From positions 1 through 58,420 of IMG/VR virus record IMGVR_UViG_3300026543_000167: a stretch of 58,420 nt of DNA; one strand, 5' to 3'. The translations under genes were made by a program, and so were the position numbers. Below the pieces are notes generated by a model. The model was not told the DNA's origin. It did no database searches and saw only the letters and a program-made list of their open reading frames with translations. The stretch comes from a virus. Its lineage: Duplodnaviria; Caudoviricetes. The first letter of the stretch is position 1. Each line of letters opens with the position of its first letter. Shown here one piece after another: positions 7,191-28,240 of the stretch.

Positions 7191-7383
7191 GGACGTGTCC
7201 TTTGTTTTTTGATCTTTTTTGTTTGTGGCTTGGGCGCTTAGAATTGCGAAACAACCTTTTTAGGCGATTGGTAATGCGTCCATTGTCCTTGGTCAAAATG
7301 TCGGGACCTAAACTTCCCTGCAAAAATCCTGATGTTGCTTTTATTTGTTCATCACGAGCTTGCATAATTTTTTCCTTTAAAAA

Positions 7384-7453
7384 AGCCTATGGCGGGATTC
7401 GAACCCGCGACCACTGGGTTAGAGCCAGTTGCATTCCATTCTGCCACATAGGC
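7384..7453 (-). tRNA. tRNA with CUA anticodon (amber suppressor)
   Basis: Acceptor GCCTATG/CATAGGC; D-arm GCA-GAATGGAA-TGC; anticodon arm ACTGG-CTCTAAC-CCAGT; T-arm GCGGG-TTCGAAT-CCCGC; U73; no encoded CCA. Confidence 0.85.
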
Positions 7454-7461
7454 TTCCAAAT

Positions 7462-8139: not shown

Positions 8140-8688
8140 GTCATCGCTGTCTCCTTTTGGGTTTCTCTTTCATGATGGCTCGCTATACTTCTCTGGTTTT
8201 CTTTGTTGGTTTGACACGCTTTCTTTTTTTGGGTTTCTTAGATATGATGACGCGCTCCGGATTTACGGGTTTCTCTATTGATGTGACTCGCTTATTTATC
8301 TTGGTTTTCTAGCTGGTATTGACACGCTCCTTTATTTTGGGTTTCTCCAAAAGAATGACTCGCTTACATTAGATGGGTTTCTAGCCTATTTTGACACGCT
8401 ATGGAAATTTGGGTTTCTTTTAAAATGTGACACGCTCCGGATTTACGGGTTTCTACTTGCCTTTGGCACGCTTCATAGCATTGGGTTTCTCAAATATATT
8501 GGCTCGCTTTACTCCTATGGTTTTCTAATCAATATTGACACGCTAGTGTTTTCTGGGTTTCTTGGAAGATATGGCTCGCTTTATTCTATTGGGTTTCTCG
8601 ATTCGCGTGACACGCTTACTTATCATGGGTTTCTATGATTTATTGACACGCTTATTTATCTTGGTTTTCTATATGTGAGTGACATACT
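8140..8688 (-). repeat. TIGR-type dual-spacer guide-RNA array 1 (orphan; 15 units of 36 nt)
   Basis: Plus strand reads TGRCWCGCT-N9-TGGKTTTCT-N9 with an exact 36-nt period. Edge repeats at 8140, 8176 ... 8680; spacers vary. Confidence 0.92.
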
Positions 8689-8692
8689 TAAA

Positions 8693-8767
8693 TACGCCTG
8701 GTGGGACTCGAACCCACAACCATACGGCTTAGAAGACCGTTAAGCTATCCAGTTGCTTTACAGGCGT
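8693..8767 (-). tRNA. tRNA-Arg(UCU)
   Basis: Acceptor ACGCCTG/CAGGCGT; anticodon loop CT-TCT-AA; T-arm GTGGG-TTCGAGT-CCCAC. Confidence 0.92.
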
Positions 8768-10709: not shown

Positions 10710-10744
10710 CCCCCATCCCCCTTCATTTACTCATTTTTGGCCGG

Positions 10745-11101
10745 TTATTTGCATCTTTCCTGAATATATTTTTTGATTCCTTTTGAAGAGAATCGCAGTT
10801 GACGTGGACTTAATCGCCTGGTAAAGGGAAGTTTTTTTGAATGTCTGTATAACCAATCAGGATTACATCCAAGGCGTTCCGCCGCCTGTTCAACATTTAA
10901 AAGTTTATCTTCTTGAAACAATTCAGGCTTTCCATTAAAGGACAATATCCTACCCAATAAAAGAGTTTGGACGGAAGCCAGTATAATGAGCATGCTCAAG
11001 CATTTTTCCAACGAAAGGTCTTTAACCATTGATGGATCCGCTTTCAGATCCTCCAAGGAATTTCCTCTTTCTTGGTTTTCCATCATTCCATCCCCCTTCA
11101 T
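10745..11101 (-). CDS. Excisionase-like HTH DNA-binding protein
   Basis: LLNVEQAAERLG...WLY....LPF..RL..R.LRF. Confidence 0.8.
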   Translation of the reverse strand: MKGDGMMENQERGNSLEDLKADPSMVKDLSLEKCLSMLIILASVQTLLLGRILSFNGKPELFQEDKLLNVEQAAERLGCNPDWLYRHSKKLPFTRRLSPRQLRFSSKGIKKYIQERCK

Positions 11102-11113
11102 TTACTCATTTTA

Positions 11114-11368
11114 TTAAACAAGTGGATCATCATTATCAAACAAACCTTGTCCGTCCTCTTTGTGCTTTTTTATTATTTCACTAAATCTTTTAGGATCTTT
11201 TTTCTCATACTGTTCTTTTAATTGTTCCATTGTCTCCAAACTATCGATATATCTCTCATAAATTTTTCGAAAAATATCTAATTTTACCGATGTAGAGGGT
11301 AGTGTAACCCACTGATCATATCGGGACATCATCAGTTTTTTAGTTCTAGAATTCCTCCATAGCATCAA
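11114..11368 (-). CDS. Hypothetical protein
   Basis: ORF with RBS in the minus-strand operon. Confidence 0.45.
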   Translation of the reverse strand: MMLWRNSRTKKLMMSRYDQWVTLPSTSVKLDIFRKIYERYIDSLETMEQLKEQYEKKDPKRFSEIIKKHKEDGQGLFDNDDPLV

Positions 11369-11391
11369 TCCACCAATCCCCTTTTATTAAC

Positions 11392-11640
11392 TCAGTTTTG
11401 GCCGGTTATTTGCCATTTGTTTGCCTCATCCTGCCATTTTTTTATATCAGCCTCAAATTTTTTATCCATAGCTCTTCCCTCTTGCCACAATCTATAAACC
11501 TTTATGATTTCATTTCCCATAATAAAAAACATAAGGATATTATCATCTGGAATAATGAAATACCCCATTGTTACTATTCCCAACGACCGTATTAAATTTT
11601 TGCATGGCTCATCAAATTTTGGCCACATTTTATTTCTCAT
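11392..11640 (-). CDS. Hypothetical membrane protein
   Basis: Hydrophobic segments. Confidence 0.45.
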   Translation of the reverse strand: MRNKMWPKFDEPCKNLIRSLGIVTMGYFIIPDDNILMFFIMGNEIIKVYRLWQEGRAMDKKFEADIKKWQDEANKWQITGQN

Positions 11641-15774: not shown

Positions 15775-16023
15775 TTATTTACATTCAGGACACAACCACC
15801 CCTTTGAGGTCTTTTTCCATTTGCCTTGGGTAGGGTTGCCATGCACAGCGTTTATTCTTATTCCTTCTTTAAAGGATTCGATGGCTTCACCCTTACTTTT
15901 CTTTGAGAAATCCTTAACGTTCCTATGGGTACTTTTATGACCGCCACTGGGGTTCATGCAATCCTCTGTAATACAAAAAATTTTCAGCCGACAAACCTCA
16001 ATTTCGTAAAGTCTCATTGCCAT
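15775..16023 (-). CDS. Hypothetical Zn-ribbon protein
   Basis: GW.CPEC. Confidence 0.5.
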   Translation of the reverse strand: MAMRLYEIEVCRLKIFCITEDCMNPSGGHKSTHRNVKDFSKKSKGEAIESFKEGIRINAVHGNPTQGKWKKTSKGWLCPECK

Positions 16024-16207
16024 CCCCCTTCATTTAGTTATTCTGTGCTCGATTTTTCGAACGTATTTGTTCATTTTACGCCGCCAAAACAATCGCAAAA
16101 AGAATACGCGATACCAGCCCCATCTTAGAAATAAGAGCCACTTTAAATGTATAACGATGGTTTTAACCATACGAATCTACTTTCATTTTACATTTCTGGC
16201 CGATTGA

Positions 16208-18114: not shown

Positions 18115-18136
<22 letters not shown>
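17882..18136 (-). CDS. Hypothetical protein
   Basis: Starts within the 49-bp repeat that carries its RBS. Confidence 0.45.
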
Positions 18137-18322
<186 letters not shown>

Positions 18323-20528: not shown

Positions 20529-21581
20529 TTATTTTACATCCCAGACCTTCATGTGTTCTTTCAAGGTTTCCCTTTTTAACCTGGCATATACCAACGTCGA
20601 CCGGATATCCGCATGGCCGAGAATCTTCTGAACCACTTCGAGGGGAACACCAGCGTTGATCATAAAACACGCCGAAAAATGCCTAAAATGATGAAAACTG
20701 GCCCATTGGAATCCGGCGCGTCTGAAAGATCGTAGAACCTGATTTGTCATAGCCTTTGCTTTGATCCCAGGGAAAAACAAATCTTCGTCGCCCAGAGGCC
20801 AGACCTTGATTTGCTTAAAGACATTGCGTAATTTTGCATTAATAGGAATGCTGACCGGGCGTCCGGTTTTGGTTTGGTGGACTTCGATCCACCCAGCCAT
20901 AAGGTTGACATTCTTTTTCTTAAGGTTGACAACGTTGCCCATGCGCAAGGAAGAATAGGCGGCAACCAAACAAGGTAGTCTGTAGACTCCACAAACAAAG
21001 TTGTGGATAACATTCAGCACATCGGACTCCTCTAGGATCTGAGTTTCATCAAACCGTTCCCCTTTATTCTCGAATTTCAGCTTGGGTAGCTGAAAATTAC
21101 GATTTCCCAGACAAACTATTTTTTTCAGGCAACGGAATTCCTTTTTAAGAGTACTTTCCGGTTTATGCTTATTGGCTTCATGGTATTTAAAAACTTCATA
21201 TTCATTGATTTCCCCGATCTTAAAATCGGAAAAATACGGAACCAGGTGGCAACGGATAAGGATCTCTTCCCTTACCGTGGCATTTGGAAGGAATTCATGA
21301 ACCGCCTCCATGAAATCTCTTTTAAATGAATTATATTCCCCTCTTTCTACAGCAAGCTCTAATTCAGCGAATTTTTTGCGAGCCAACCGTTCGTCTGTGG
21401 TGCCCAGGCAATCCCGGATTCTCAGCCCGTTGATGCGTTTCTGGGCATACCATATCTTGTTAACTCCTCTCTGTACCATATATTCGGCCATCGGTTCCTC
21501 CCTTTCGGAATACCGAGGCCATCGACCTTTCCAGTGGGTTGCACTATATACCACACTTTTTCTTTTGATGGAATTGGTCAT
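20529..21581 (-). CDS. int: Tyrosine integrase
   Basis: Catalytic residues R (SLRMG), K (QTKTG), HxxR (FHHFRH), LGH and Y (LVYA). Confidence 0.93.
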   Translation of the reverse strand: MTNSIKRKSVVYSATHWKGRWPRYSEREEPMAEYMVQRGVNKIWYAQKRINGLRIRDCLGTTDERLARKKFAELELAVERGEYNSFKRDFMEAVHEFLPNATVREEILIRCHLVPYFSDFKIGEINEYEVFKYHEANKHKPESTLKKEFRCLKKIVCLGNRNFQLPKLKFENKGERFDETQILEESDVLNVIHNFVCGVYRLPCLVAAYSSLRMGNVVNLKKKNVNLMAGWIEVHQTKTGRPVSIPINAKLRNVFKQIKVWPLGDEDLFFPGIKAKAMTNQVLRSFRRAGFQWASFHHFRHFSACFMINAGVPLEVVQKILGHADIRSTLVYARLKRETLKEHMKVWDVK

Positions 21582-21767
21582 TGATTTTATATGGACATTA
21601 ATTTCTGTAACGTTTCTTTGGGGATTAATTCTTTAATGGACGTTTTCAAGGATATATTGTCTCTTTTGTGCTTTTCTTTGGGAAATTGATTGACCTTCTC
21701 AGAATTGTAAAGCCGCTTTTTTTTCAGCTTTTTCCTTTCTTTCCAAGCTTTTTCTAAATCAGTCATT

Positions 21768-21998
21768 TCAGTTATTCGTTGAAAATAAACGTGTGTGAAA
21801 ATCCTTTATTTTCATCGGAGTTATCTTTTTTTTAAGACGGAGAATTTCCACTTCTTGCTCTATAGTGATTTTAGTCATCGTTAAAGTCAGTTTTATAGAT
21901 TCAACGCGACCTTTCTCGAAACCCAGTTTGTACCAAAACCAAATATTAAAGGCCCAAGCTACAATAAAAATTAGCAGCCATAAAGATCCCATTATCAC
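21768..21998 (-). CDS. Hypothetical membrane protein
   Basis: N-terminal TM helix. Confidence 0.5.
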   Translation of the reverse strand: MIMGSLWLLIFIVAWAFNIWFWYKLGFEKGRVESIKLTLTMTKITIEQEVEILRLKKKITPMKIKDFHTRLFSTNN

Positions 21999-22381
21999 TC
22001 CTCCATTTTTACACTTGCCACATTCTTTCTTTTAGTGGGATTCCGATTCCTGTTAACCGTAAAACCGTTTTTAATAAGTTTTCGTCTTTTTTTAAAATAG
22101 TCATTTAAATATTGTCTGGTGCATTTAGGTGAGCAGTTTTTCACTTTGGAGTGAGTGGGATCAAAATATTTTTTGCACCAAACGCAAGGTTTAGGGAAAT
22201 GTTTTTTTGCGCGGCTTTTCTTTGTTTTACTTTTCTGCCATCCTTCGCGGAATTTATTGGAAGTCTGGCTTCCCAGTGGATCAGGGTTGAATTGATCCCA
22301 GAATCTTTTTTTTAGAGAAGTTTGGCTATGTATTGTCTCCAATTCACCATTTGGCTTATATACTTTACATTCATAGATCAT
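21995..22381 (-). CDS. Zn-finger hypothetical protein directly downstream of array 2
   Basis: CVWC...F.P......CSPKC. Confidence 0.6.
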   Translation of the reverse strand: MIYECKVYKPNGELETIHSQTSLKKRFWDQFNPDPLGSQTSNKFREGWQKSKTKKSRAKKHFPKPCVWCKKYFDPTHSKVKNCSPKCTRQYLNDYFKKRRKLIKNGFTVNRNRNPTKRKNVASVKMEE

Positions 22382-22399: not shown

Positions 22400-23445
22400 T
22401 GAAACGCTCAGCACTGGTGGTTTTCTTGTTCCCGTTGGCTCGCTTGATCTTCATGGGTTTCTTTGACAAAATGGCACGCTAAATTAGTATGGGTTTCTTC
22501 ATTTTCGTGACCCGCTTTGGGATAGTGGGTTTCTTTGAGAATCTGGCACGCTCCGTTTTCATGGGTTTCTATATTTCATTGACACGCTAGTTTAGAATGG
22601 GTTTCTTTATTTTCGTGACCCGCTCTGTGGGTTGGGTTTTCTTCGGACTTTTGGCTCGCTTGCATCTTATGGGTTTCTTTTAGGATTTGACTCGCTACTT
22701 TGTTTTGGATTGCTCGTCGGAATTGACACGCTCCTTCATTTGGTTTTCTTCTTATGATTGACACGCTAATCTAATGTGGGTTACTTTTCTCCTATGACAC
22801 GCTAATCTCCTCTGGTTTTCTTCAAACGGTTGACACGCTTCAAAGATTTGGTTTTCTCTCTCTCATGACTCGCTAATACTTTTGGTTTTCTGAATAGAAT
22901 TGGCACGCTTTATTTTTCTGGTTTTCTTAATCGTAGTGACACGCTTTCTCATCATGGGTTTCTAAAATTGGATGGCTCGCTAGATAACCATGGTTTTCTT
23001 CGATTCCGTGACGCGCTTAAGAGTTATGGTTTACTAAATCTGTATGACTCGCTTACTCTTTTTGGGTTTCTTAGATGTGATGACTCGCTTTCTTTTTTTG
23101 GGTTTCTTAGATATGATGACGCGCTCCTTTCTTGTGGGTTCCTAGTCAACATTGACACGCTTAAAGCTCGTGGTTTTCTCGCCCAACATGGCACGCTTTC
23201 GTTTTTTGGATTTCTTCACTTAAATGGCACGCTTAACAACAATGGTTTACTCATGGAGTATGACTCGCTCGCAGGTATTGGGTTTCTGAAATGATGTGAC
23301 TCGCTAGGGACCAGTGGTTTTCTTTCTCATGTTGACTCGCTTTCAGAGAGTGGTTTTCTCCCTCGATATGACTCGCTTTCTGTTTCTGGTTTTCTTTGCT
23401 AATTTGGCTCGCTCTATGATATTGGATTTCTTTGTTCGTTTGACT
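22400..23445 (-). repeat. TIGR-type dual-spacer guide-RNA array 2 (29 units, 36-nt period)
   Basis: RNA-strand unit WGYCA-N9-AGAAAMCCA-N9-AGCG. The first AGTCA overlaps the TAG of the upstream Nop-domain gene. Three spacers are 8 nt. Confidence 0.93.
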
Positions 23446-24505
23446 ATCCGGCCTTATGAACCTTTCCTAGCTTGCCCTCAGAATAACTGGTTGAAACAGG
23501 CAATCCTTCAATCGCTCGCCAGTTTTTATGCAAGTCGATTAAAAATTGTTTGATCATATATCGCATGGACATGTTATGGCGGTGTCCTTTGGTCTTTTCG
23601 ATATGGTCAGGATGATTTTCTATCCGGTTTTTATAGTCTCGATAAATAGTGCTATACGGGTTTTCCCCAGCCCGTAAAAAAGAGGAAGCAAGCACACCAA
23701 TCAATTTGGTCTTTAACCAGGGGTTAAAAGTGATCCCCATTTTAAAAGCTACATTTTCATGCTTATCGATATACTCTGTTTGGACCAAATGTTCCTTTTT
23801 CTTGGAACGTCCTTTTTGATCACCAGCCCAAACATAAATTAATTTAGCCTGTAGATTTTCTTCTTTATAAAAAATATGCAATTCATTTGGCGCACCTTCC
23901 TTCTCGAAGTGCGTAAAGTTGAACCTATCTTTAAAAGTCCAAAAAGGTTTTTTCGTAGGGAAATCGTAAGCAATTTTATTAGGATTAATAAGGTTTTCGA
24001 TTCTATCCAATTCCCATTCTGCAACAACATCGAGTCCTGCATATTTCCACAAGCTGGATGGATATTTGCATCGATAAATATCAATTTCCGATATCAACAA
24101 GCCTGCCATCGCCGGACCAATTCCCTTAACGTTTGACAAATAATCAGAATAGATTGGATATTCGTTCAACATCGAACCCAGTCTTTTAAAATGACTGATT
24201 TCCTGGGTTTCTAGGCTGATATACTGGGCGACTAAACAAAGCTCAGTAAACGTGCTGATAATCTGATCGCCTTCAAAACTTGATTGCCGTGGAAAAGTTT
24301 TTACATTGTCCGTAATTTTTTTATAACTTTGCCTGATTTGTATTAGCAATTCTTTCCCCTTTTCATCAAGAGTGTCTTCACTTTCACTAGGCTTTTGGCC
24401 CAGTCGCGCCTTGAAATTGGCAACGATACGATTCCCCATTTGAATACGTAATTTTTGCAAGTCATAAGCACCGCGTACAAATATCTTCAAATTTTCAGTT
24501 TCCAT
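23444..24505 (-). CDS. TIGR-associated (Tas) Nop-domain RNA-guided protein, TasA-like with an internal insertion
   Basis: N-terminal coiled coil (YDLQKLRIQMGNR); IS110/Nop-like L..VKGIGP..AG.LISEI...SSLWKYAGL; FNP.LKTKL...Y..YK.R...H...A/SMR.MIK.FL.DL. No N-terminal DEDD/RuvC domain. Abuts the array. Confidence 0.85.
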   Translation of the reverse strand: METENLKIFVRGAYDLQKLRIQMGNRIVANFKARLGQKPSESEDTLDEKGKELLIQIRQSYKKITDNVKTFPRQSSFEGDQIISTFTELCLVAQYISLETQEISHFKRLGSMLNEYPIYSDYLSNVKGIGPAMAGLLISEIDIYRCKYPSSLWKYAGLDVVAEWELDRIENLINPNKIAYDFPTKKPFWTFKDRFNFTHFEKEGAPNELHIFYKEENLQAKLIYVWAGDQKGRSKKKEHLVQTEYIDKHENVAFKMGITFNPWLKTKLIGVLASSFLRAGENPYSTIYRDYKNRIENHPDHIEKTKGHRHNMSMRYMIKQFLIDLHKNWRAIEGLPVSTSYSEGKLGKVHKAG

Positions 24506-26825: not shown

Positions 26826-27491
26826 TCATTCCGCCCTCCGGATGCCCGTGTCAATCTCCTTGAATTCAACGCCTGGTATTTTGCATTGGCCTTTCGTATT
26901 GCGAATCTGCCGCATGATTTTAGCATTATCTACCAATAGATATTCATGCGGAACATCCGCAACAGTAGGCTCGTTGGTAATTTTCCAATCCTTTTTGAAT
27001 TTTGTTTTGCTCATCAATTGCATAGTGGTGACTTGTTGGGTGACCGGCGGTTCATCCTTCATTTCCCGTAGGGCCTTGGCGACCTCTTGGTTGCCATTAG
27101 TTTCCGCATCTTTAGCCTCCTTTTCGCAGGCGGCGTCATGATCTTTCTTAGCCTTTTCATCGAGCAGGCGTTGTTCTTCTGCTCTCTCAGCATCCCTTTG
27201 CTGTTTATAATTACCCATTTTTACCGTTAATAACTTGGATGCCTCATCGGGCGGCTCGTACAAATTCTTACGAAGATTCGTTGCGGCCTTGTGCGCCTTA
27301 TTTGTGAGATCACAAACAGGGTCGTGATGAAATTTTATAACCTTCATCAAATTTTTACATTCCACCACCTTGTGATCCGCCATTTGATATTCTTGGTCAT
27401 CTGTGATTTCCATCACCTTTGCCCATTCAAATATTGAATGTGACCTCTCTTGGAGCTTGTCGTTAGTTTGTGTTGGTATTAATTGATTCAT
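26826..27491 (-). CDS. Coiled-coil recombination-module protein
   Basis: VP.EYL.VD...I...IPGV C-terminus; adjacent to ERF. Confidence 0.6.
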   Translation of the reverse strand: MNQLIPTQTNDKLQERSHSIFEWAKVMEITDDQEYQMADHKVVECKNLMKVIKFHHDPVCDLTNKAHKAATNLRKNLYEPPDEASKLLTVKMGNYKQQRDAERAEEQRLLDEKAKKDHDAACEKEAKDAETNGNQEVAKALREMKDEPPVTQQVTTMQLMSKTKFKKDWKITNEPTVADVPHEYLLVDNAKIMRQIRNTKGQCKIPGVEFKEIDTGIRRAE

Positions 27492-28240
27492 GTTTTCACC
27501 CCGTTCTTCGCTTCATTAGCGAGAAATTCAAGTTCTTTAAATCGAGCATCGTATTGATCCGCTGGGATTTTCTCGGGCATTGAAATGTCATGCTCATTAA
27601 GTTCGGCCTTCATTTTCTTCGTGGCTATTTTCAATCGGATACATTCTTTTCGATATGCGGTGGCCTGGTCTGAAGTTATAAAATTGTCGTGTATGATTGG
27701 AGTTACTGGGTCCAGCGGGATATCGTCTTGGTCTTTTGGCGGGATCTCTTTAGAAAGTGCGGCTTTTTCTTTGTCGGTGAGGATTTTGTTCGTGGTTTCG
27801 TTATGGCCGTTTCCATTATCACCATTGTCTACCGGTTCCCCATCACTGTCGCCCGGAGCAATGCCCACCATTGCCATAAGCCCATAACGCCTAGCATAGG
27901 TCATGGTGATCCCGTAAGTTTGCGGGTCGGTGGCATCCACCCAACCGCTTCCTTTTTTGCGGGTTTGTAATTTCATTCTTATGGAACCTTTAATCCACTG
28001 ACCAGAAGAATGGAGGAGGAGGGTAATGAGGTTTAAAAATCCGTGATCGGATTGGCCGGGGTATTGAACTACGGATAGTTCATTTTTACTTAAAGCTGTT
28101 CGACATGCATCCCAACAACTTGCTAAATCTGCGTAATTGGACTCATGAAATTTATTCCAAGTTTCCTTGTGCGCTAGTGATATTTCACCTTGAGCTTTTG
28201 CCAAGGCAATCGCTAGATCTTTAATTTCTTCAGTTTGCAT
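27488..28240 (-). CDS. erf: ERF-family ssDNA-annealing protein
   Basis: ALAKAQ...YADL...LLHSSGQWI...PQ..G...TYARRY.L.AMVGIA..D.DG. Confidence 0.92.
   Translation of the reverse strand: MQTEEIKDLAIALAKAQGEISLAHKETWNKFHESNYADLASCWDACRTALSKNELSVVQYPGQSDHGFLNLITLLLHSSGQWIKGSIRMKLQTRKKGSGWVDATDPQTYGITMTYARRYGLMAMVGIAPGDSDGEPVDNGDNGNGHNETTNKILTDKEKAALSKEIPPKDQDDIPLDPVTPIIHDNFITSDQATAYRKECIRLKIATKKMKAELNEHDISMPEKIPADQYDARFKELEFLANEAKNGVKT

Follow-up and report, generated by a model that had tools for sequence, protein, structure and literature searches.

How TIGR arrays arise, grow and gain spacers is an open question: Faure et al. (Science 2025, PMC12045711) call it an enigma how the arrays emerge, are maintained and expand, and the TIGRFinder preprint from the same laboratory (2026, 10.64898/2026.09.09.750476) describes the way in which they acquire spacers as unknown (these and the other report cited below were available in part, and what we take from them refers to those parts). 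Bearing on this question is a virus record of the IMG/VR database, IMGVR_UViG_3300026543_000167, which was analyzed over its entire length of 58,420 bases (hereafter, the window) and carries a new locus of the dual-repeat TIGR-Tas family with two arrays. The initial annotation of the window had noted that the same half-spacer occurs in these arrays with different partners and had proposed that halves are reassorted by crossover inside the loop repeat. We find that the recurrent half-spacers are real copies at the DNA level, made in register and far above chance, which keep their position type and bring flanking repeat variants with them; they probably arise by short-patch copying.

Half-Spacers Recur with Different Partners in the Window

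Both arrays have a period of 36 nucleotides (nt). Read on the plus strand, a unit consists of an edge repeat (TGRCNCGCT), a 9-nt half-spacer S1, a loop repeat (TGGKTTTCT) and a 9-nt half-spacer S2; the repeat pattern is matched 42 times in the window, with 0.05 matches expected. Parsing yielded 15 units in array 1 and 29 in array 2, and 85 of the 88 half-spacers are 9 nt long. Since array 1 terminates in GTCATCGCT and TGACATACT and array 2 in TGAAACGCT and TGACTATCC, each a partial or degenerate TGRCNCGCT, this sequence corresponds to what PMC12045711 calls the edge repeat, and TGGKTTTCT to what it calls the loop repeat. The arrays are thus of the TIGR type with GGGTTTCT as the loop repeat, as the initial annotation had it.

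Four exact pairs were found among the 85 nine-nt half-spacers (44 units), against 0.06 expected when columns are shuffled and 0.15 when letters are shuffled inside each spacer, and none of 2000 shuffles reached four. Half-spacer pairs with one mismatch number seven against ca. 1.5 expected, a value reached by 1 of 2000 shuffles. Chance as the source of the repeated half-spacers was rejected by these shuffles as well as by those of the family census described below.

There are three maximal exact repeats of at least 19 nt within the arrays (42, 22 and 23 nt), all of which run into the repeats (Table 1). Two of them correspond to the array-1 cases of the initial annotation, which are present where it had placed them: CCGGATTTA with loop variant CGGGTTTCT at 8257 and 8437, and TATTTATCT at 8293 and 8653, each with different partners. 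CCGGATTTA lies in the units at 8248 and 8428, and its two partners differ at 7 of 9 positions. The C-first loop variant is seen in 2 of the 44 loops, precisely those beside CCGGATTTA; by simple counting, the probability that one given loop pair holds both C-first variants is 1 in 946. TATTTATCT, together with TGGTTTTCT, lies in the units at 8284 and 8644 and has unrelated partners; the unit at 8644 is the first one if array 1 is read on the minus strand. The remaining two exact pairs, absent from the initial annotation, make up one whole unit, TTCTTTTTT/TAGATATGA, which is common to arrays 1 and 2.

A third case, in array 2, had also been read as reassortment. The repeat itself exists: T[C/T]ATTTTCG is followed at 22499 and 22607 by edge variant TGACCCGCT, which is seen only these two times. 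However, AAATTAGTA and AGTTTAGAA, the two partners, have 6 of 9 positions in common, the following spacers are alike by eye if an indel is allowed, and both copies lie inside a diverged 108-nt (three-unit) repeat to which TRF assigns 73% matches. This case is therefore better read as a diverged multi-unit duplication than as re-pairing.

Arrays of a Close Relative

G001, a complete 62,005-bp phage record with terminal repeats, was the only close relative found (Tas 82% identical). It is syntenic with the window, with aligned stretches at 66-91% identity (most flanks 66-82%, two at 88-91%), and its arrays are located at the same two places. The initial annotation had suggested that arrays of related phages be compared, and the comparison revealed more re-pairing: the pattern is much stronger in the distal array of G001 than in the window. 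Among its 38 units there are four exact whole-unit duplicates and three half-spacers with different partners (TTACCACTA, TACTTTATG and TTATTATAT). Blocks running from loop to loop are repeated as well, TCGTAATAT-edge-TTACCACTA twice exactly and [G/T]CGGACGTT-edge-TACTTTATG twice with one mismatch. One 9-mer, TTGTGATTT, is found in both position types in G001. In a separate observation, TGGAAGATA/TTATTCTAT and CGTCGGAAT/CCTTCATT are neighbors across an edge in the window and lie within one unit in G001 (arrays L130, L131).

No colinear spacers are seen between the arrays of the window and G001: even along the best diagonals, 9-nt spacers differ on average at 5.2-5.8 positions, and the all-diagonal average is 5.9-6.2. 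The spacer content of these syntenic arrays has thus turned over completely while the flanks remained mostly 66-82% identical, so that some source of new spacers must exist beside copying, which cannot be the sole process.

Family Census of Same-Repeat Arrays

A total of 120 sources were parsed, 67 of which have arrays of at least eight half-spacers; 65 sources with 1,883 half-spacers were retained. Pieces of the window (L002-L009) and duplicates of G001 (L001, L080, L128, L129) had been dropped before parsing, and L098 and L108, with arrays near-identical to those of L047 and L079, were dropped after it.

Exact same-type pairs inside one source number 49, where 0.54 would be expected, and none of 1000 shuffles reached 49; with the window and G001 left aside, 31 pairs remain against 0.30 expected. 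At least one exact repeat occurs in 17 of the 65 sources and none in 48. The position type is kept: 49 of 16,953 same-type comparisons are identical against 2 of 17,755 cross-type ones, and there are no reverse-complement matches. By kind, the copied blocks comprise 16 of S1 only, 15 of S2 only, 8 whole units and 1 loop-to-loop block. The partner across the loop is identical for 16 of the 49 pairs (the 8 units being counted from both halves), shows 1-3 differences for 8 and at least 4 for 19, and is not comparable for 6, i.e., 19 of 43 comparable partners are as different as random pairs. The neighbor across the edge is identical in 2 and has 1-3 differences in 3 of 47 comparable pairs. Since the partner is kept more often than the neighbor across the edge, the tigRNA unit is the main quantum of copying, yet nearly half of the comparable partners are unrelated. 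Copy frequency is independent of distance within the array. A three-unit (108-nt) periodicity of copies was considered and rejected, the three-unit spacing being no commoner than other distances.

Between sources, 42 exact same-type matches were found; the null expectation, over same-type matches of every kind, is 6.4. Of these, 24 have the partner in common too, which puts the sharing of whole units well above chance. The partner has 1-3 differences in 9 others, is unrelated in 6, which is the chance level, and is not comparable in 3. It thus follows that the sharing of a half alone is a within-genome phenomenon, which argues against convergent capture of a half-site.

Single whole units with unrelated neighbors are common to otherwise unrelated arrays (L011/L032, L027/L088/L071 and L088/L117). 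Whole units shared across contigs reflect either cassette exchange or convergent guides against one target. In the closely related pair L027/L045, units occur in permuted order. In L063/L096 and L071/L091, which are the two informative pairs (L091 is a truncated 1-kb contig), tas-distal units are shared and tas-proximal units differ; both pairs hint at a polar turnover at the tas-proximal end, similar to leader-end acquisition in CRISPR.

Boundaries of Copied Blocks and a Possible Copying Mechanism

The extent of the copied blocks was assessed from the repeat variants flanking exact halves with unrelated partners, one pair being taken per spacer family (16 families). The loop variant is the same in 13 of 16 (5.4 expected, P = 2e-5) and the near edge variant in 13 of 16 (8.6 expected, P = 0.011), and for the far edge variant, past the partner, the figure is 10 of 16 (8.4 expected, P = 0.26). 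Since the loop and the near edge are linked to the shared half and the far edge is not, the copied block usually comprises near edge, half-spacer and loop and stops before the far edge. Such linkage is expected with a boundary at or in the loop repeat and unexpected if a whole unit was duplicated and one half replaced.

An exact chimera of two adjacent units was found in L105: beside TTTCTTCCA/CGAACGATA, the array contains TTTCTTCCA/AAATGTCAG and GTGATACTG/CGAACGATA, which adjoin each other; the difference is exactly one 36-nt indel in the loop register. Both parents are present for only 1 of 816 units. A further 33 units have one half in common with a unit whose other half is unrelated, and in each of them the second half occurs nowhere else. 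It follows that simple reciprocal crossover between existing units is not the usual route and that non-reciprocal copying of short patches fits better. Simple unequal crossover is likewise disfavored because all intervening units would be duplicated. The crossover inside the loop repeat that the initial annotation had proposed is therefore supported as to the place of the boundary, given the co-inherited loops, the loop-to-loop blocks of G001 and the L105 chimera, and weakened as to simple reciprocal exchange.

We consider the recurrent half-spacers to be in-register DNA copies, made within and between arrays by short-patch copying and bounded by the repeats, the loop repeat included; we assign this reading a probability of roughly 0.6. 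As to the molecular route, we infer the following. A short patch would be copied that takes in some of the near edge repeat, a single 9-nt half-spacer and the loop repeat, with its ends in the 9-nt repeats. Where the patch ends in the loop repeat, the half-guide would become joined to a different partner, and the re-paired units would be processed into tigRNAs. Whole units, from edge to edge, are copied more often than halves, and loop-to-loop blocks more rarely. Copies land at any distance in the array and also in the second array, a spread that short-patch gene conversion or template switching would produce and adjacent slippage would not.

Several points weigh against this reading. All arrays come from metagenome assemblies, and the census is a sample, at least 118 stretches having been found by the repeat-pattern scan of IMG/VR. 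Direct proof of re-pairing between existing units is a single case, the L105 chimera. The loop variant differs beside the shared 9-mer in 3 of 16 families (4 of 19 pairs; L020, L067 and L047), which could be independent captures or later mutation. In 8 of the 43 pairs that can be compared, the partners have 1-3 differences, so that part of the pattern goes back to duplication of a whole unit and a later change in one of its halves. The far-edge test, with 16-19 pairs, has low power. The repeats, at 9 nt, are short for homologous recombination, so that any homology-driven route would use very short homology. The numbers of events are small throughout the analysis.

Alternative Explanations

The alternative that survives best starts from duplication of a whole unit, from edge to edge; one of its halves would afterwards be exchanged or strongly mutated where it stands, perhaps via the process that makes new spacers, so that no breakpoint in the loop would be needed. 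It takes whole-unit copies (8 exact unit pairs within genomes) as the commonest block, and it would account for the near-identical partners just mentioned, the background at three or fewer differences being ca. 3%, and for the array-2 example inside its diverged three-unit duplication. Changes of one half in place are seen between L071 and L091, which have 7 half-spacers exactly in common and 63 nt of neighboring spacers identical, with one half differing at 3 of 9 positions, and likewise between L027 and L045 for AGGCTGATA; new spacers must, moreover, arise somehow, as the syntenic arrays of the window and G001 have none that are colinear. A duplicated unit should, however, retain the far edge beyond the differing partner, and this edge is the same about as often as expected. 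In addition, 19 of 43 partners are as unlike as random pairs, and the loop-to-loop blocks of G001 and the loop-register indel of L105 require boundaries in loop repeats. We therefore hold this explanation to be unlikely as a general one.

Independent capture of the same target half-site on more than one occasion, with shared 9-mers reflecting the targets, is distinctly improbable. The three families with a differing loop right beside the shared 9-mer, and the 9-mer that occupies both position types in G001, are what such captures would produce, and half-sites could be semi-autonomous, given that swapped spacers work and that one strand of a target is still cut when one spacer matches it at only 6 of 9 positions (PMC12045711). 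Captured half-sites would, however, not be expected to bring flanking repeat variants with them, to keep their position type (49 same-type against 2 cross-type identities in about equal numbers of comparisons, with no reverse complements) or to be shared between genomes at chance level only, and the targets would have to repeat a 9-10-mer beside unrelated sequence.

That the pairings are metagenome assembly artefacts (strain chimeras or mis-resolved repeats) is very improbable even with every analyzed array coming from an assembled metagenome contig, since half, loop and partner span 27 nt and a unit with both edges 45 nt, which by reasoning is well inside one short read, the longest exact repeat in the window arrays is 42 nt, which should be below typical final assembly k-mers, and the regular features (type kept, variants linked) recur in 17 of 65 sources from different samples.

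Short-patch copying at the repeats could be extended to the tentative and rather doubtful idea that the 9-nt half-guide, and not the 18-nt guide pair, is a heritable module: halves and units would be copied within and between arrays and re-paired at the loop repeat, which, together with tas-proximal turnover, would make new two-part specificities without Cas1/Cas2-like machinery. For example, an array could hold on to a proven anchor half and vary the other one so as to follow target variants.

Erf-Like Annealing Protein as a Candidate Mediator

The window encodes an Erf-like single-strand annealing protein, and the initial annotation had named the phage ERF protein as a candidate mediator of reassortment. 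No ERF match was found in the complete G001 record, which is the richest in copies, and a match is present in one of four other array-rich records, those four being 40-82% complete. ERF as a necessary mediator was thus rejected: since G001 has the most re-pairing and no ERF match, the protein is not required. It may nevertheless contribute in the window phage. The exonuclease and Erf module (26826-28240) sits between two conserved blocks that are only ca. 0.3 kb apart in G001; the module was gained or lost since the window phage and G001 diverged.

Tas Protein and Organization of the Locus

The features discussed in this work are collected in Table 1.

Table 1. Positions of arrays, copied blocks and genes in the window (58,420 bases).
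Feature	Position	Strand	Remarks
TIGR array 1	8140..8688	-	15 units in perfect 36-nt register; both ends with degenerate or truncated edge repeats; begins 5 nt past tRNA-Arg
TIGR array 2	22400..23449	-	29 units; three spacers of 8 nt; several loop repeats decayed; begins at the tas stop codon
42-nt exact block, array-1 copy	8217..8258	-	whole unit TTCTTTTTT/TAGATATGA and following rare edge variant TGACGCGCT
42-nt exact block, array-2 copy	23086..23127	-	diverged tandem copy, TACTCTTTT/TAGATGTGA, in the neighboring unit at 23045
22-nt exact block CGCT-CCGGATTTA-CGGGTTTCT, copy 1	8253..8274	-	partner CTATTGATG
22-nt exact block CGCT-CCGGATTTA-CGGGTTTCT, copy 2	8433..8454	-	partner ACTTGCCTT
23-nt exact block CGCT-TATTTATCT-TGGTTTTCT-A, copy 1	8289..8311	-	partner AGCTGGTAT
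23-nt exact block CGCT-TATTTATCT-TGGTTTTCT-A, copy 2	8649..8671	-	partner ATATGTGAG; unit adjoining tRNA-Arg
Array-2 example, copy 1 (loop, TCATTTTCG, TGACCCGCT)	22490..22516	-	
Array-2 example, copy 2 (loop, TTATTTTCG, TGACCCGCT)	22598..22624	-	three units from copy 1
tas (P0003)	23444..24505	-	353 aa; Nop-type, TasA-like; array 2 begins where tas ends
Erf-like single-strand annealing protein	27488..28240	-	PF04404 E 1.1e-22; PHROG E 1.2e-31
Exonuclease gene	26826..27491	-	directly downstream of erf; 4-nt overlap
tRNA-Arg(TCT)	8693..8767	-	immediately upstream of array 1
Tyrosine integrase	20529..21581	-	ca. 0.8 kb downstream of array 2, same strand

Of the features typical of dual-repeat TIGR-Tas loci, the following are present: alternating repeats, spacers of ca. 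9 nt, a 36-nt unit, an adjacent Nop-domain gene and truncated terminal edge repeats. CRISPR-Cas architecture, in which single repeats of 25-36 nt separate spacers of similar size, is not seen, the arrays having two alternating 9-nt repeats (the window as a whole was not searched for cas genes). No rho-independent terminator was found by a simple scan on the minus strand downstream of either array; such a terminator is a typical and not a universal feature of TIGR arrays (PMC12045711).

The product of the single tas gene, P0003, matched TasR chain 9mty_A (E 8.9e-9) and TasH 21kl_A in sequence searches. Its AlphaFold (AF2) model, with a mean pLDDT of 83, begins directly with the helical Nop part, and its 10 best fold matches in the PDB are all TasH or TasR chains (E 8e-7 to 4e-5), with IS110-family recombinases just after them (ranks 12-14, E 0.1-0.18). 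Relatives of P0003 number 1,971 at E <= 1e-5, and most of the 120 listed are ca. 285 aa long; P0003, with its 353 aa, therefore has an extra, beta-rich insertion of ca. 70 aa, located at about residues 163-257. No nuclease family (HNH, RuvC) was detected in P0003 via Pfam or PHROGs, in searches that did not treat the beta-rich insertion separately, and the protein is therefore TasA-like; its sole Pfam match is Transposase_20, under the cut-off of that family. The nearest relatives among the matches listed from the protein collection are 82% and 70% identical, and the only isolated phage found is Ralstonia phage phiRSL1, with a Tas-like protein of 36% identity. Of 9 related loci examined, 8 have a tas match, always on the strand of the array and with the array directly downstream; the remaining locus is the distal array of G001, which has no tas.

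The IMG/VR record is classed as linear, with a completeness estimate of 84%. PHROGs matches in the window include a portal protein, large terminase, major head protein, head closure protein, tail fibre and integrase, and the phage is probably tailed and temperate. On the minus strand, tas, array 2, P0002, a small open reading frame (ORF) and the tyrosine integrase follow each other (20529-22381 and upstream). P0002 is a 128-aa basic protein with cysteine pairs and no family match. TasA has been speculated to aid phage integrases (PMC12045711).

P0001 (7679-8068, minus strand; 129 aa, no family match) directly follows array 1, and its region is retained at 73% nucleotide identity beside the distal array of G001. 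Adjoining this ORF, ARAGORN called a tRNA with anticodon CTA (labelled Pyl) at 7383-7454 on the minus strand. Such a tRNA would act as an amber suppressor; under table 11, however, the large structural ORFs remain intact, and recoding is therefore not obvious. Elsewhere in the window, an exact 49-nt direct repeat (18115-18163 and 18274-18322) flanks tRNA-Pro(TGG) at 18183-18259; it may be a duplication or else a repeat of the attachment type. Four copies of an intergenic motif, which reads CCATCCCCCTTCATTTACTCATTTT on the plus strand, occur between minus-strand genes (10712-10752, 11087-11127, 11373-11413 and 16019-16059); the motif is probably a shared promoter or ribosome-binding region.

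Search for Targets of Re-Paired Guides

The form of the target, reverse complement of S1 followed by S2, was assumed from the 3' overhangs reported in PMC12045711. Two-strand 18-nt targets were searched in both orders with gaps of 0-2, the arrays being masked, in three combinations. Window guides on the window gave 0, 0, 3 and 28 matches at 0, 1, 2 and 3 mismatches, and re-paired controls gave 0, 0.15, 2.2 and 30.7; searches of G001 with window guides, and of the window or G001 with G001 guides, were also at the control level. No natural target could thus be assigned, and the combinatorial specificity that the initial annotation had inferred is not supported.

The initial annotation had asked whether the re-paired guides have 18-nt targets. 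Each of the two CCGGATTTA guides has one exact IMG/VR match and the re-paired control has none, a result at chance level; the matched contigs are dissimilar to each other and unrelated to the window. In one of them, L151, an unrelated phage contig with 35% GC, the target predicted for the unit at 8248 is matched perfectly and ungapped over 18 nt (minus strand, 1114-1131). This match, which is indistinguishable from chance, is located 17 nt downstream of an ATG preceded by a Shine-Dalgarno-like AAGGAG. A metagenome scan with the 18-mer made of half-spacer and loop variant retrieved 14 unrelated matches, none of them in a TIGR array, and no population variants; searches with 18-mers are thus noisy. 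TasR cut one strand of a target when one spacer was fully matched and the other matched at 6 of 9 positions (PMC12045711), and heteroduplex formation is stepwise (10.64898/2026.08.11.744272), which makes some retained activity of a re-paired guide plausible.

Comparison with Known Systems

In the parts available, PMC12045711 reports no obvious covariation between spacers A and B. No description of recurrent or re-paired half-spacers was found by full-text literature searching or in the TIGR papers, the supplements of which may bear on this, so that, as far as searched, these dynamics of TIGR arrays are undescribed. The within-genome recurrence of units and half-units at ca. 90 times chance, in register with flanking repeat variants, and the ability of the loop repeat to serve as a boundary are testable regularities. 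If re-paired units are active guides, they would matter for the prediction of natural targets and for the stability of engineered multi-guide TIGR arrays.

The window locus resembles the dual-repeat TIGR-Tas systems of PMC12045711 in its 36-nt units of edge, 9-nt spacer, loop and 9-nt spacer, in its truncated terminal edge repeats, in the Nop-domain Tas gene directly upstream and in its phage host. It differs from them in having two arrays, 14 kb apart, with one tas gene, and in the insertion of ca. 70 aa in Tas.

CRISPR arrays, which lose and duplicate spacers by repeat recombination, likewise undergo in-register rearrangement of guide cassettes bounded by repeats, and the differences at the effector-proximal end in two closely related TIGR array pairs recall leader-end turnover. 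TIGR repeats, in contrast, are only 9 nt long and of two types, and a breakpoint in the inner repeat re-pairs the halves of one guide, for which CRISPR has no equivalent. In the parts of PMC12045711 and 10.64898/2026.09.09.750476 available, no cas1/cas2-like adaptation genes are known for TIGR; no search for such genes was made in the window.

Archaeal and eukaryotic box C/D guide RNAs, which act in Nop5 or Nop56/58 ribonucleoproteins, share with TIGR a related Nop-domain protein and the arrangement of two short guides around an internal motif in one RNA (PMC12045711), but they direct RNA methylation and not DNA binding, and their genes are mostly dispersed, with no regular 36-nt arrays. The IS110/IS621 bridge RNA recombinases, which come next after Tas in the fold search, also use a bispecific RNA with two independently programmable parts. 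In contrast to them, P0003 has no recognized recombinase catalytic domain, and its guides are arrayed instead of being supplied as one bridge RNA per element.

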